The position numbers and the translations under genes were made by a program. From the IMG/VR virus record IMGVR_UViG_3300042392_001228, positions 55,215 to 75,214 of that record: a DNA stretch of 20,000 bases. One strand, 5' to 3'. This document shows positions 15,514-20,000 of the stretch, in pieces (positions within the stretch are counted from its first letter, which is position 1; every line of letters begins with the position of its first letter). Under the pieces are notes generated by a model, which saw only the letters and a program-made list of their open reading frames with translations, was not told the DNA's origin and ran no database searches. Source of the DNA: an uncultured virus (IMG/VR IMGVR_UViG_3300042392_001228). Lineage: Duplodnaviria > Heunggongvirae > Uroviricota > Caudoviricetes.

Positions 15514-15957
15514 TCAGGTTCGGTCCCAAGAATTCACGGTTAGCTGAATCTCAATTTCCTGAACATTGCCGCTTTCACGGTCAACATCGGCGGTATTAAG
15601 AGACATGAACTGACATCCGTAGCAAGTGTATTGGCCGCCAGCGGGTGCTGATCCGTTTCCAACACAGTCTTTCGGAGTGACTGTAACTGTGATTTCTCTG
15701 CAATTATACTGCAACCAGTAAATTTCCAACTGCTTGAAGATCGTGGGATCGTACGGAGCAGAAAGGGAGATGTTGTCTACCTTTTTGGGGCCTACAACTT
15801 TGTAAATACGGTTACCAGTACCATTGGCGTAGTCACTGCTACTTGAGGAATCCTTGATTCCGCTGAATTTTGTAAACGTGGCGATTAGTGTGGGTCCGTC
15901 AGGAGCTACGAAGCTAACTTCGTACTGAGACTTTGTAATCGGTCTGAGAATTGCCAT
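15514..15957 (-). CDS. Tail tube protein (contractile-tail/T4 gp19-like fold)
   Basis: 147 aa with a strong AGGAGG SD. Pattern FTKFSGI...VVGPKKVDNISLSAPYD...ITVTV...YTCYGC...ADVDRESGNVQEIEIQLTV is typical of tube proteins. Confidence 0.8.
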   Translation of the reverse strand: MAILRPITKSQYEVSFVAPDGPTLIATFTKFSGIKDSSSSSDYANGTGNRIYKVVGPKKVDNISLSAPYDPTIFKQLEIYWLQYNCREITVTVTPKDCVGNGSAPAGGQYTCYGCQFMSLNTADVDRESGNVQEIEIQLTVNSWDRT

Positions 15958-15985
15958 TGGGTCACCTCCTTAGTACCTTCCCTTA

Positions 15986-18900
15986 TCAGGATAGGATGTT
16001 GGTGATCATAGCGCCAGAACCGATAAGACCAGTTGCGCCGAGGCCAACTAGGTTAACCACACGTTCAATTGTGATTTCAGCACGAACAACGCGGCGTTCA
16101 CGAATGTAGTATTCGGGACGGACGGCGGGGGTGCCTGTGAGCTGATCATTTGTGTTATCATAAGGGCTCTTTATCCCTTATTTCTTCACATTTCTGTGAA
16201 GATCAGACTATATCTTCTTCCCTTTAACTTTGAGGGTTTAGGGAGTGGGGCACTCTTGTCAGCTTCATCACTGTTCTAGTGGTATGCTGTTAGTCGTTGA
16301 ACGTTCGTTTTCTCCCGAAAACGCTTCGCTGCTGATTACCATAGTTTCAAACTCTCGTTTGAAGCCGTAGGCTTCCCAGCAATTCACCCCATTGACTCGC
16401 GGATCAGGCGAGTAATTTGATGTTACCATCAAACCACGCATTCAGCTCGTTTAAAAGAAACGATGTTGTTAGCATACGTGTAAGAGAAGGCAGGAGTCGC
16501 AGCATTCGCACCACCAGCAGGCATGATGGAATCAGAAGGACCGTTAGGGCTGTAGAACAGAAGGATACCGTTAGCTGGGAATACCGGCTGTAGGGTTCCA
16601 TCTTGCGCTAAGTAACGACCTTCGGCAACACGTAGGCCACGCTCAAGACCGAAGTAGCGAGCAATGACGTCAGTGTCGACGCTGTCTGCAGATGTGTACT
16701 TGATACGATCAAGGATCTTCTCGTTGGTCAGCAAGAGGTCAAACACGGCAGTACCGACGACTGCGGAGTTTGGACGGATACCGATTTGGTTGGCGACTGC
16801 ACGCTTGAGGGTGAGGATGTCTTCAATTGGGTTAGAAGTAGCACCAGACCAGGCGGCGTCTCCAGCAACGGAGCCGTAAGCTGTCTTGAAGTTTGTCCAG
16901 GTTGTGAAACCGAGTCCGGTCTGGGAACCTGCGGTTCCGTTATAGGGCTCGTAAGGGTTGTAAGTCGCGGTGACGGAAACAGCTTGAGCAACGGTGTACT
17001 CGTAGCTGTTCATCAATCTGGACATTGCATTCCTGGTTTCGATTGCGCGAAGCAATTTGTTAACTCAGCGGCTCTTTATCCGCTGATTCATTACCTTGTT
17101 GTCGGCAATGTTCAGACTATATCATTGTTCTGTGAGGTGAACTTAGTGTTCACTTTACAAAACATCGGGCGCTCGTGTCAGCTTCATCACTGTTCTAGTG
17201 GTATGCTGTTAGTCGTTGAACCTTGCCCCTATCCCTAGGGGCCTTGGCTGCTGATTTCCCACACGGGGGTTCCAGCAATTCACCCAATTTATAGTGGACC
17301 TACGCTGCGATCGAAATTGCACGTAAAAAATAATCCACCTGCGCGGGCCCTTCCCCGGCATTTTCAATTACCTCTTCAGGCAATTCCCAGGCGACCACTT
17401 CCTGCTCTAGAGCATAAGGCTCAGAGTCGTAGCGGCTTTGGACGTATGGGATGTTAGTTCCGTAAGCACGACGGAAATCGTTTATAGCAAACTGCTCCTT
17501 CCCAAATCTGAGAATTCTCCCAGCGCGGGTAGGGGTGTCCACAACCGGTGCGATAAACACTTGTTACCGTGAAGGCTCTTTATCCTTCACTTCTTCGCAT
17601 TTCTGCAAAGATCAGACTATATCATCATCTTCCTTAAACTTTTTAACAACGGTTCGCAGAGACTGCCAAGTATTACCTAGACCGGTTAGCCGGAACAGCT
17701 TCCTGGCCCCACACTTCTCGTTAGAAACCCAAACTTCATGCAATAAACCTAAATTAGACCAAACTTCGACATTAGCCCGAGGGTTTTTAATGCCTGTTCG
17801 ATCCCGGTCGGGTCTATTAGCGGCTTGCAAGGCGAATTGTATAGTTGGTTTACTAAGTGCCTTATCTTTAAGTTTCTGTCTTGATTCTGCACTCCACACT
17901 CTGTTCTTGCATAATTCTGCACGAGCGGATCTTTCTTTATCAGACATTGGAACTTTCCTGGGTCTGGCCTTTCCTTTATTGGATTTGCCAATTTTAAACC
18001 TAGTTTCGTCCGAGTGTTTATGATGAGCTAAGGTTTCGTACACTCTGGAGTTTTTCGAAGACTCCTTGAAAGAGTTTATAGCTTTGCCTAACCTCTTTAT
18101 GGAAGAGAAAGCTAGAGCCAGCAGGCAGTGAGACAGGTAGTGCTCTCTGTAGGTGAGTTTGATTAGGTTACCATCTTCATTTCCACCCTTCATGCACTTG
18201 GGCACTATATGGTGAATGTGGTGTCCGGGTTCTCGTGTCAAACTCCTTGGGGGTCTGGAGAGGATAAACTTTATGTACCGTTGGTAGTGTAAGGGAGAGT
18301 CGGGCGCTCGTGGAAAGATTATTTCAGGGTTGATCACTTTCTAGTCGTTGAACCTTTTTACTTAACACTACTATAGTTAGTAGAGACCCTAAGTAAACTT
18401 GGCTGCTGATTGCCTGTTTTGCAAAAGCAAAACTAAGGTATCCCAGCAATTCACCCGATTTTCAATCAGAGTCACCTCTGAGTGGAACCCTATCGATTCG
18501 CAATGTTGGTGGACAATATGTTCTCTCTGCTTACACAGAGTGTCGGACTATCTTATCGTTTCTTTACAAAACGTTGGGCGCTCTAGCCTGTTATTAAGGG
18601 AACTAAATCCCCCAGGTAGTCTCTGAACCTTCTTCCGGTGTACCGGAAGCTTGGCTGCGGATTGACCCTTTTGCTAAGCAAAAGTAGGCTTTCCCGCAGT
18701 TCACCCAATTTCTTTTCCCCTACACCAAAGGGAGCATGAAGCCTTGTGCGAGTGTTGTGAGGATTGGCCAGTGTTATCGCAAAAGCTCTTTATCTTTTGC
18801 TTCTGTATGTTTCCATACAGGTCAGACTATATCATCATCTTTGCTTGAGCAAAGAGTCGGGCGCTCGTGGATTGTTCGCCTGTTCTAGGCTACTTAATCT

Positions 18901-19963
18901 AGTCGTTGAACCTTGCCCCTATCCCTAGGGGCCTTGGCTGCTGATTGCCTATTTTGCAAAAGCAAAACTAAGGTGTCCCAGCAATTCACCCGATTTTCAA
19001 CTTTGTTTGGAAGTTGGGACCCTAATTAATCCACACCTGCATAAGTCTGTTGTAGCAACTTGTTATCGTAAAGGCTCTTTATCCTTTACTTCTCTACATT
19101 TCTGTAAAGTTCAGACTATATCATCATCTCGGATTACGGCCCAGCTGCCACCCCTCGCCGGGGTGTTTTTCTGACCGAGTTCTAATCACTTCTGTACCTT
19201 CGATTTTCCAGTACCATCTTTGTTTTGATATCGCACAGGAAATTTTTCGCTTTGACTCATCGCTATGGGTAGAGTTTTTACGAGAGCACTTGTCAATCAT
19301 TGTGGGATTATTTTTCCACACTTCTTTCATAGTGCTACTTATCTTACCTCTGTGCTCCTTGTCTTTGGTTCTACCTTTTAGGGAGCTGGAAATTTTATGA
19401 CCCCAAGAAACTTCCCTTCTTCTGTTAGACTCAGCTATCCGTTTTGACTTTTCCTCGTTTTTCTGACAATACTCCAGAGACTTGTAGAACTTGGACCCTT
19501 TGGATCCGTTCATTAAGGAGGCGCATTCAGCGAGTTTTATATTAGTGGGGAAAGCTTTATGAAGTACTAAATGAAGAACTGTATGTTCTCTTCTTGTAGT
19601 TAAAACTACGTTTTCGGGGTTGTAAGTTCCACCCATACATTTAGGTAGAATTCTGTGCTTTTCTAAACCATCCCTCTTGCATTTTACGCGAGATAAGGAT
19701 CTTATGCTAAAGCACATTCTTAGGTATCTTCTTAAGAAGTGGTTGTTACGAGAGTCGGGCGCTCGTGGAAAGATTATTTCAGGGTTGATCACTTTCTAGT
19801 CGTTGAACCTTTTTACTTAACACTACTATAGTTAGTAGAGACCCTAAGTAAACTTGGCTGCTGATTGCCTTGCGCCTTGTAATACAAAGCCGTCAGGTGT
19901 CCCAGCAATTCACCCGATTTTCAATCAGAGTCACCTCTGAGTGGAACCTTTATGATTCATCAT
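15986..19963 (-). CDS. Major capsid protein (HK97-fold, phage capsid E-like), 351 aa, spliced from 7 exons: 19963-19955, 19055-19029, 18767-18729, 18513-18496, 17557-17333, 17052-16476, 16146-15986
   Basis: Joined exons total 1056 nt and give an open frame: MMN|LQQTYAGVD|PILTTLAQGFMLP|STNIAN|FIAPVVDTPTRAGRILRFGKEQF...GPAQVD|LRAIETRNAMSRL...PAFSYT(Y)|QLTGTPAVRPEYY...AMITNILS*. VDPILT.LA.G...IA....P.V......G.I..FGKE.F and WS...SNPIEDI...I...PN are typical capsid motifs. AAGGA SD at 19974-19978. Confidence 0.88.
16147..16475 (-). ncRNA. Group I intron 6 of the capsid gene (329 nt, ORF-less, phase 1)
   Basis: P GGTGAATTGCTGGGAA, Q AATCAGCAGC, R GTTCAACGACTA, S AAGATATAGTCT. P1 exon CACGU pairs with GCGUG (U.G). 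P10 GAGCUGAAU pairs with AUCAGCUC. Ends in G. Confidence 0.92.
17053..17332 (-). ncRNA. Group I intron 5 (280 nt, ORF-less, phase 0)
   Basis: P/Q/R/S elements present. P1 GUGGAU/GUCCAC, extended P10 to exon CUUCGCGCAAUCGAAA, terminal G. Confidence 0.92.
17612..18337 (-). CDS. Intron-encoded HNH homing endonuclease with NUMOD3-like motifs
   Basis: HHIHHIVPKCMKGGNEDGNLIKLTYREHYLSH (HNH); KHSDETRFKIG and WSAESRQKL (NUMOD3-like). GTG start is uncertain. Confidence 0.88.
   Translation of the reverse strand: MINPEIIFPRAPDSPLHYQRYIKFILSRPPRSLTREPGHHIHHIVPKCMKGGNEDGNLIKLTYREHYLSHCLLALAFSSIKRLGKAINSFKESSKNSRVYETLAHHKHSDETRFKIGKSNKGKARPRKVPMSDKERSARAELCKNRVWSAESRQKLKDKALSKPTIQFALQAANRPDRDRTGIKNPRANVEVWSNLGLLHEVWVSNEKCGARKLFRLTGLGNTWQSLRTVVKKFKEDDDIV
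18295..18415. repeat. 121-nt exact direct repeat (copy 2 at 19750..19870): shared ribozyme core of introns 4 and 1
   Basis: Base-by-base comparison at offset 1455. A further 49-nt identical block lies at 18441..18489 and 19900..19948. Confidence 0.93.
18514..18728 (-). ncRNA. Group I intron 3 (215 nt, ORF-less, divergent type)
   Basis: P GGTGAACTGCGGGAA, Q AATCCGCAGC, R GTTCAGAGACTA, S TAAGATAGTCC. P1 UCCCU/GGGGA, P10 UUGGUG with exon CACCAA, terminal G. Confidence 0.9.
18768..19028 (-). ncRNA. Group I intron 2 (261 nt, ORF-less)
   Basis: P/Q/R/S present. P1 GGAU/GUCC, short P8 hairpin TCTTTGCTCAAGCAAAGA, terminal G before CCAATC. Confidence 0.9.
19056..19954 (-). mobile_element. Group I intron 1 (899 nt) after codon 3 of the capsid gene, carrying an HNH homing endonuclease in L8
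   Basis: P/Q/R at ~19795-19915, S at ~19113-19125. P1 GAAU/GUUC. 3' end ...GATAACAAGTTG; an alternative G 3 nt earlier would add one Leu. Confidence 0.9.
19124..19792 (-). CDS. Intron-encoded HNH homing endonuclease with NUMOD3-like motifs
   Basis: EKHRILPKCMGGTYNPENVVLTTRREHTVLH (HNH); HSDESKRKIS (NUMOD3-like); C-terminal PGEGWQLGR. GTG start is uncertain. Confidence 0.85.
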   Translation of the reverse strand: MINPEIIFPRAPDSRNNHFLRRYLRMCFSIRSLSRVKCKRDGLEKHRILPKCMGGTYNPENVVLTTRREHTVLHLVLHKAFPTNIKLAECASLMNGSKGSKFYKSLEYCQKNEEKSKRIAESNRRREVSWGHKISSSLKGRTKDKEHRGKISSTMKEVWKNNPTMIDKCSRKNSTHSDESKRKISCAISKQRWYWKIEGTEVIRTRSEKHPGEGWQLGRNPR

Positions 19964-20000
19964 AATAGATGTTTCCTTGTGTGTAAAGTTGACTTCAAAG

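Follow-up and report, generated by a model that had tools for sequence, protein, structure and literature searches.

Seven exons and six introns in one capsid gene

The stretch of DNA analysed here (20,000 nt; hereafter the 'window') forms the final 20 kb of a 75,214-nt contig of an uncultured tailed virus (IMG/VR record IMGVR_UViG_3300042392_001228, positions 55,215 to 75,214), the completeness of which is estimated by CheckV at 33%. Its minus strand carries, from position 19963 down to 15986, a major capsid protein gene that is divided into seven exons by six group I introns (Table 1). On the evidence presented below we are highly confident that this is a single HK97-fold capsid gene of the Phage_cap_E type from an uncultured ~280-kb lake phage, probably a cyanophage, and that the six introns are spliced out. 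Among cultured phages, Synechococcus phage S-CBWM1 is the closest relative.

Joining the exons by coordinate yields 1056 nt, that is, 351 codons and a stop codon, and the introns account for 2922 of the 3978 nt of the gene; both the continuous open reading frame (ORF) and the intron share had been given in the original prediction, which was made from the letters alone, and both proved exact. An exon-final T precedes each of the six introns and a G (omega G) closes each of them, with five junctions in phase 0 and one in phase 1. The boundaries were placed with the guidance of P0002, an uninterrupted 351-residue homologue obtained by a database search with exon 6, and a custom spliced aligner of protein against DNA (exon-final T, intron-final G, introns of at least 150 nt), supplied with P0002 and the DNA only, recovered identical exon and intron coordinates. 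The G+C content is 52.7% in exons and 43.2% in introns. The start codon lies just 9 nt from the first ribozyme, and four of the six ribozymes are found within the first 93 coding nucleotides, with intervening exons of 27, 39 and 18 nt.

The spliced product agrees with P0002 at 351 of 351 residues, and its proposed identity as a capsid protein is borne out by profile, sequence and fold comparisons: (i) successive exon fragments correspond to successive parts of phrog_1005 (major head protein), exon 5 to positions 33-109 and exon 6 to 109-270 (E 9.6e-25 for exon 6); (ii) the exon 6 fragment contains Pfam PF03864, Phage_cap_E (41.7 bits against a cut-off of 22.9); and (iii) an AlphaFold model of P0002, computed from a 100-sequence alignment (pLDDT 86.9, pTM 0.84), retrieves as top Foldseek match in the PDB the Phage_cap_E-type prophage protein 3bjq (E 1.7e-23; TM 0.70/0.80), followed by the capsids of P23-45, YSD1, Chi and lambda and also by encapsulins, so that the product, as modelled, has the HK97-type capsid fold. 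The nearest annotated phage, S-CBWM1, encodes an uninterrupted major head protein of 341 residues that is colinear with the window in tblastn: residues 13-25, 32-106, 107-289 and 290-341 fall on exons 3, 5, 6 and 7, with identities of 12 of 13 residues, 79%, 58% and 79%, respectively. The first three residues, encoded by exon 1, agree with both S-CBWM1 and P0002, and the peptide GPAQVD|LR, named beforehand as a junction peptide, is indeed what the joint of exons 5 and 6 encodes.

In two complete or nearly complete relatives, G002 (279,339 bp, terminal repeats, 100% complete) and G001 (277,244 bp, 98% complete), all matches of P0002 lie in one interrupted locus and no second capsid gene was found. 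This agrees with the claim that virion assembly depends on six splicing events, and a role of the product as virion shell protein is indirectly supported by the major head protein annotation in S-CBWM1 together with its being the sole such gene in these relatives. Automated annotation, much as had been anticipated, misses or truncates the gene: database homologues measure only 194-266 residues on contigs of up to 280 kb.

A concern voiced with the original prediction was that the arrangement might be an assembly artefact of repeated intron sequences. The contig does end 37 nt upstream of the start codon, and the introns do resemble each other (introns 1 and 4 over ~195 nt at 93.5%). Yet the arrangement recurs on two independent contigs, one of them the 64-kb contig with locus L010 and the other with L015, at 100% identity to the window along the entire 4101 nt compared, which argues against mis-assembly; both continue upstream into head-protease-like and other genes, L010 for a further 3 kb with three ORFs, one of them head-maturation-protease-like. 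A third locus, L026, is 99.8% identical over 3927 nt, and contigs from RNA libraries span exon/intron borders. Hence, we consider the probability of an artefact to be negligible.

Table 1. Features of the capsid gene in the window, with the exon joints seen in contigs of four RNA-library runs (X1-X4)
Feature	Position	Strand	Description	Joint in RNA contigs
Possible Shine-Dalgarno-like AAGGAA	19973..19978	-	found by eye in the 37 nt 5' of the start; 9 nt from ATG	
Exon 1	19955..19963	-	9 nt, codons 1-3, MMN	
Intron 1	19056..19954	-	899 nt, phase 0, group I, endonuclease ORF inside	exon 1-exon 2, skips 899 nt; 3/4 runs
Intron 1 open frame	19124..19795	-	223 codons, putative HNH-type homing endonuclease; phrog_655, E 9.9e-22	
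Exon 2	19029..19055	-	27 nt, codons 4-12; agrees with P0002 residues 4-12	
Intron 2	18768..19028	-	261 nt, phase 0, group I, without ORF	skips 261 nt; 3/4 runs
Exon 3	18729..18767	-	39 nt, codons 13-25	
Intron 3	18514..18728	-	215 nt, phase 0, group I, distinct lineage	with intron 4: exon 3 to exon 5 by way of exon 4; joined in X1, present as loose ends in X2-X4
Exon 4	18496..18513	-	18 nt, codons 26-31	
Intron 4	17558..18495	-	938 nt, phase 0, group I, endonuclease ORF inside	see intron 3
Intron 4 open frame	17612..18340	-	242 codons, putative HNH-type homing endonuclease; phrog_655, E 1.3e-22	
Exon 5	17333..17557	-	225 nt, codons 32-106	
Intron 5	17053..17332	-	280 nt, phase 0, group I, without ORF	skips 280 nt; 4/4 runs
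Exon 6	16476..17052	-	577 nt, codon 107 to base 1 of codon 299	
Intron 6	16147..16475	-	329 nt, phase 1, group I, without ORF	skips 329 nt; 4/4 runs
Exon 7	15986..16146	-	161 nt including TGA stop; remainder of codon 299 to 351	

Ribozyme cores and joined exons in RNA libraries

For their conserved catalytic core, P3-P8, all six introns score above the gathering threshold (50 bits) of the general group I covariance model, Rfam RF00028, as the original prediction of six group I introns implied. The matches (53.1, 98.2, 66.0, 71.9, 59.1 and 81.2 bits for introns 1 to 6) each span model positions 1-253, all lie on the minus strand and are located from 16184 to 19968; no further match exists elsewhere in the 20-kb window, and the eight matches in the whole 75,214-nt contig are all inside the capsid gene. 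The predicted U.G-containing P1 helix and terminal G are likewise present in six of six introns, the guide pairing with the last 4-7 exon bases: introns 1 and 4 employ the strands GAAT/GTTC and intron 2 GGAT/GTCC, and the P1 helices of introns 3, 5 and 6 measure 5, 7 and 5 bp. The P10 pairing claimed for introns 3 to 6 stood as a contiguous helix for introns 3, 4 and 6 (6, 7 and 7 bp), whereas for intron 5 a 7-bp helix, recognized by eye, begins 9 nt into exon 6.

To judge from their sequences, the six introns are one mosaic family. Besides the 5' similarity of introns 1 and 4 indicated above, introns 2 and 5 have one hairpin in common, introns 5 and 6 an internal block, and five of the six a 3' extension, which intron 3 lacks; the comparison of intron 3 with introns at other sites gave no high-scoring segment pair of at least 150 nt. 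When the entire window was compared by megablast with 50,697 phage records, a sole match emerged (67 nt, 89.6%), to Clostridium phage CPQ4, which is of no help for identification of the virus. This match connects the 3' part of intron 1 (window 19060-19126) with an unannotated stretch of MZ401006.1 (2108-2174), and it suggests that CPQ4, an unrelated phage, carries a related intron.

Joined exons are present in RNA libraries. Twenty lake-water metatranscriptome runs, coded as 20 studies from 2017-2018 and possibly belonging to a single campaign, contain 56-73% of the gene's sampled words, and Logan contigs of the best four runs were aligned to window positions 15900-20000. Across these four runs, exon joining is seen at all six predicted junctions (Table 1), as expected if the introns leave the RNA. 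Contigs that cross exon/intron borders occur in the same libraries and represent unspliced RNA, excised intron RNA or DNA. The contig depth (~20-50 in exon bins and 0-17 in most intron bins) cannot rank the parts of the gene and was not used as evidence. Among the RNA joints listed, neither an exon 1-exon 5 nor an exon 2-exon 6 joint is found, that is, no exon skipping between introns 1 and 4, which have the same guide. As an observation in its own right, intron 1 is represented nearly whole, including its endonuclease ORF (window 19029-19948), by contigs of 866-997 nt in X1-X4, for which excised intron RNA, mRNA of the endonuclease, precursor RNA still to be spliced and DNA are all conceivable sources.

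Several points weigh against the conclusion that the introns of this very gene are spliced out. P0002 derives from short Logan contigs only (the longest of 1560 nt) and may be the spliced transcript itself, so that it does not independently prove that an intron-free gene exists. In introns 1 and 2, the P10 pairing is weak, at 2-3 contiguous bp. Being contigs and not reads, the RNA data tell that the joined form exists and do not allow one to derive the efficiency of splicing, and RNA libraries can contain DNA. Intron-free DNA alleles make up 16 of 43 complete genes from related loci (75-86% nucleotide identity in the large exons). Finally, five exon positions distinguish the joined RNA contigs from the window, and this five-nucleotide haplotype is also found on L022 (2756 nt, origin unknown), which is devoid of introns 4-6, so that some joined RNA contigs could come from L022-like alleles.

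From these points one might construct a gene in which the six-intron allele is dead or unspliced and the joined RNA stems from co-occurring intron-free strains, since alleles lacking all or some of the introns do exist (L030, L039 and others, besides L022). We consider this very improbable. All loci with at least 97% exon identity to the window (L010-L027, L029, L031) have at least one intron; L022, which retains intron 3, is excluded as the source of a contig that joins exons 3, 4 and 5 and whose exon 5 equals that of the window along its 225 nt; and the RNA haplotype also lies on the 85-kb DNA contig L016, in which introns 5 and 6 are present. Moreover, the ribozyme cores are intact, the guides match the exons, and the complete relatives have no other capsid gene. 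Since no locus of at least 97% exon identity is wholly intron-free, and given the exon 3-4-5 contig and the haplotype on L016, splicing is by far the simplest reading of the joined RNA contigs.

For a spliced gene the following course of expression can be proposed. The capsid gene would be transcribed as a ~4-kb pre-mRNA, in which each intron would fold as its own ribozyme, with its guide paired to the last 4-7 exon bases and the U.G pair at the splice site; each intron would then be cut out after its terminal G, and the seven exons would form the 1056-nt message for the 351-residue protein. In introns 1 to 6, an in-frame stop follows the 5' splice site after 7, 0, 2, 1, 10 and 15 codons, respectively (intron 2 opens with a stop codon), and the predicted translation of unspliced RNA from the start codon is a peptide of only 10 residues. 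Such stops, 0-15 codons past each 5' splice site, would release ribosomes ahead of the ribozyme core.

We infer that the introns act autocatalytically, without the help of proteins. Alternatively, their splicing in the cell may depend on a protein of the phage or host (a maturase or chaperone) or on particular conditions, in which case the supply of capsid protein would be regulated and not merely burdened. The crowding of four ribozymes into 93 coding nucleotides, where neighbouring P1 and P10 helices have to make use of the same short exons, fits this proposal, as do unspliced contigs with introns 1-3 in the RNA libraries. The covariance model, on the other hand, aligns complete cores in all six introns, no maturase-type LAGLIDADG ORF was seen (the two intron ORFs are both of the HNH type), and intron retention is not measurable from contig depth. 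On balance, a requirement for protein help or special conditions appears quite unlikely to us.

Intron content and mobility among related phages

The aligner was run on 68 related loci, of which 43 cover the whole gene; beyond the intron-free alleles mentioned above, 27 of these contain at least one intron, namely 1 (six loci), 2 (three), 3 (two), 4 (one), 5 (four), 6 (six), 9 (one), 11 (one) or 13 (three: L041, L042 and L070). The six introns of the window are thus not the extreme of the lineage. In total, 207 introns were placed, 127 of them unique, at ~16 firm sites (codon.phase): 3.0, 12.0, 13.2, 25.0, 31.0, 50.0, 53.1, 64.0, 91.0, 93.2, 101.0, 106.0, 118.2, 296.1, 298.1 and 309.0. An Rfam check of 13 loci gave 82 matches above the cut-off, compared with 91 introns placed by the aligner.

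Some placements were not counted. Site 28.2 (five loci) arises from the aligner's T/G rule, and P1 and P10 fit site 31.0, where the intron would end in A. In L041 (3011-3287; also in L038, L042, L047 and L069), both helices fit an insertion after codon 31 with A and not G as intron end, whereas placement at 28.2 loses P1 and changes two residues; this intron may have an unusual 3' splice site or be decaying. Sites 14.0, 28.0 (L021) and 102.0 (L052) are apparent artefacts, stemming from contigs that are truncated or divergent. Micro-exons of 5 nt (12.0/13.2), 8 nt (91.0/93.2) and 6 nt (296.1/298.1) were seen in L041, L047, L067, L069, L070 and others, each of which must serve both as 3' exon of one intron and as the entire P1 target of the next.

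Within the complete relatives the introns concentrate in the capsid gene, which holds 14 of 17 RF00028 matches in G002 and seven of eight in G001, the capsid exons of the latter being 97-99.6% identical to those of the window. The other three introns of G002 (83.2, 64.7 and 58 bits) split a DNA primase gene (L082 1879-2955, corresponding to G002:C1:20378-21454), with phrog_25243 positions 12-273 and 342-585 on two ORFs; it is the only other intron-bearing locus there. G001 encodes a psbA-type photosystem II reaction centre protein in an uninterrupted frame of 359 residues (G001:C1:272210-273082; PF00124, E 8.6e-86); such a protein was not found in G002. Based on the psbA-type protein in G001 and the kinship to S-CBWM1, the hosts are probably cyanobacterial and the phage, of ~280 kb, is probably a cyanophage.

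Intron content changes on a background of almost constant exons. Among loci with 97-100% identical exons, at least eight different intron sets are found; intron 6 is both present and absent on both exon haplotypes, and is absent at exactly its place in the DNA of near-identical relatives, e.g., at L029 in a 277-kb record. One site can hold either a short (~260-330 nt) or an endonuclease-sized (~850-1020 nt) version of an intron: 264-274 or 890-899 nt at site 3.0, 262-280 or 938-964 nt at 31.0, 279-303 or 967-969 nt at 106.0, and 327-369 or 910-950 nt at 298.1. Introns from different sites are up to 87-93% identical over ~230-256 nt, almost the full length of the ribozyme, from which it follows that movement between sites has happened.

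Both introns 1 and 4 encode putative HNH-type homing endonucleases (Table 1), with a mutual identity of 39%. The two frames begin within the ribozyme core, with identical first 15 residues, and in both of them His/Asn/His-rich stretches are discernible by eye. NUMOD3 is detected by Pfam in the intron 4 ORF (21.3 bits against a cut-off of 20.4), all Pfam HNH families remain below cut-off, and a comparison of the intron 4 ORF with PDB sequences gave no match at E up to 1. Endonuclease activity is predicted from sequence resemblance, and the two proteins would most likely drive the copying of their introns into intron-free alleles during co-infection.

An additional benefit to the phage is conceivable: the intron and endonuclease load might be kept not purely selfishly but because cutting the capsid gene of co-infecting intron-free relatives would lead to marker exclusion and to competition by interference. 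For jumbo phages, an intron endonuclease that helps one phage to compete with another is described in the literature (PMC11620839); many close strains with different intron sets co-occur; and, as shown above, the introns concentrate in an essential gene. However, only two of the six introns here contain an endonuclease ORF, and selfish homing alone predicts the same pattern. We therefore regard such a benefit as unlikely.

How introns reached so many sites can be approached through their guides. All 13 sites of the short-P1 class show pairing of 4 bp or more between the guide (intron nucleotides 7-12) and the cognate exon, compared with 26 of 152 non-cognate pairs; this position-restricted test replaced an earlier control allowing any position in the first 45 nt, which was too permissive (4 bp in 122 of 266 non-cognate pairs). 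Cognate pairing shows selection for splicing at each site and is silent on the route of arrival. A target of the last four exon bases is common to two of ten site pairs with at least 90% identical introns and to one of 110 others (Fisher p = 0.018, post hoc). Common targets were rejected as evidence for reverse splicing, with eight of the ten close pairs differing in target, and they say nothing about the route of spread, because splicing needs a match of guide and exon anyway. Reverse transcriptase (PF00078) was found in none of the four relatives' records that were searched, a search outside of which the window's own contig lies.

The evidence on the route of spread is thus thin. Related group I introns at two sites of ribosomal DNA constitute the classic circumstantial case for spread by reverse splicing, and direct evidence for movement of group I introns to new sites was still lacking according to the same review (PMC3984707). 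The present case resembles that one in having related introns at different sites of one gene and differs in that a 1-kb protein-coding gene offers ~16 sites, with inter-site identities as given above. It is tempting to speculate, although we hold it to be doubtful, that one ribozyme chassis has been re-aimed via its short 5' guide at ~16 sites per 1 kb, and that some of the jumps occurred by RNA pairing, that is, by reverse splicing into abundant capsid mRNA, and not by endonuclease action. If this were true, the lineage would surpass every other natural system so far for a test of group I intron transposition at the RNA level, and S-CBWM1, which is cultured and has an intron-free capsid gene, would offer a possible recipient.

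Precedents, implications and neighbouring genes

Staphylococcus phage Twort reportedly has three group I introns in one gene, orf142. That gene resembles the present one in its several small group I introns, its short exons and the possibility of exon skipping, and differs in having three introns and not six (or up to 13, as in the relatives); no exon skipping is seen among the RNA joints listed here.

Published accounts show that neither a capsid-gene intron nor a fragmented capsid gene is without precedent among viruses. Among crAss-like phages, the capsid gene of a Zeta-group phage (cMAG OLRF01000054; Yutin et al. 2021, PMC7886860) is described as being in five fragments, and group I introns are typical of core genes, including the capsid gene, in the Delta group (PMC7886860). 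The Zeta capsid gene is similar to the present one in that group I introns divide it into several fragments in metagenome assemblies; there, three of four spacers were recognized by intron-type protein domains, whereas here six ribozymes are found by covariance model, with base-exact boundaries and joined exons in RNA (PMC7886860). Hosts and habitat differ as well, with gut Bacteroidetes for the crAss-like phages and a lake for the cyanophage-like phage studied here. A group I intron in the capsid gene is also described for mycobacteriophage LittleE (Cluster J; Pope et al. 2013, PMC3706429), where a capsid-gene intron of lactococcal phage Tuc2009 is cited. LittleE has in common with our case that the interrupted gene is the most highly expressed structural gene, that the exon ends in U and the intron in G, that the intron contains an endonuclease ORF and that relatives are without it; its one intron has been proven to be spliced by RT-PCR and N-terminal sequencing, as compared with six introns and RNA contigs only here (PMC3706429).

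Outside of tailed phages, the major capsid gene of Faustovirus E12 is reported to consist of 13 exons, some very short, with group I introns accounting for five of the 12 introns (PMC6247863). Likewise, this is a capsid gene in many pieces, with endonuclease ORFs in two introns and junctions seen in transcriptome data; Faustovirus is, however, an amoebal giant virus with a capsid of another fold class, and seven of its 12 introns are not group I, in contrast to six of six in the tailed phage. The Jug jumbo gut phages carry a mean of 18.5 group I introns per genome, in essential genes, and metatranscriptomes support the splicing of 37 of 76 introns (PMC12880540). As far as described, those introns are spread over many genes, with terL in two to three fragments, whereas one gene holds most of them in our lineage. 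In bacteria, three introns in one gene were reported in 2007 as a first (PMC1995217).

The literature covered, which excludes most subscription journals and supplements, yielded no report of at least six group I introns in one phage gene, and within the same limited coverage none of capsid-gene introns in this cyanophage lineage; capsid genes richer in introns may be found in the supplements of PMC7886860 and PMC12880540. Hence, the original judgement that six capsid introns are exceptional has to be narrowed: capsid-gene introns had been published (LittleE, Tuc2009, crAss-like Zeta) and relatives reach 13, but the gene is a well-supported, unusually dense example that extends the multi-intron phage capsid genes already known.

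The phenomenon is of more interest as a property of the lineage than in this gene by itself. For its hundreds of capsid subunits, each particle depends on six ribozymes, and in relatives on up to thirteen, which provides a natural test of how many introns a bacterial-type, translation-coupled expression system tolerates. Near-identical phages that differ in their introns constitute a dense and recent record of intron gain and loss, of endonuclease turnover and of movement from site to site. For annotation, it follows that gene callers see fragments, and that a central structural gene of an abundant lake phage group is missed or truncated.

A promoter and terminator scan of L010 (2700-7400) was uninformative: 10 promoter-like sites were found, where 4.9±2.3 are expected, and the best overlaps the start codon. 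Directly 3' of the capsid gene (window 15514-15957, minus strand) follows a gene for a 147-residue tail-tube-like protein that matches phrog_35249 and, weakly, Pfam T4 gp19, and the gene order of capsid, small structural protein and baseplate J is the same as in S-CBWM1. At the opposite end of the window, two terminase-large-subunit-like ORFs lie in tandem on the minus strand (1196-2986 and 2-1162, the second of which extends past the window edge). Each has a match to phrog_38 (E 3.1e-82 and 5.9e-19), and their mutual identity is 31% over ~400 residues; they are a paralogous pair and not one split gene.

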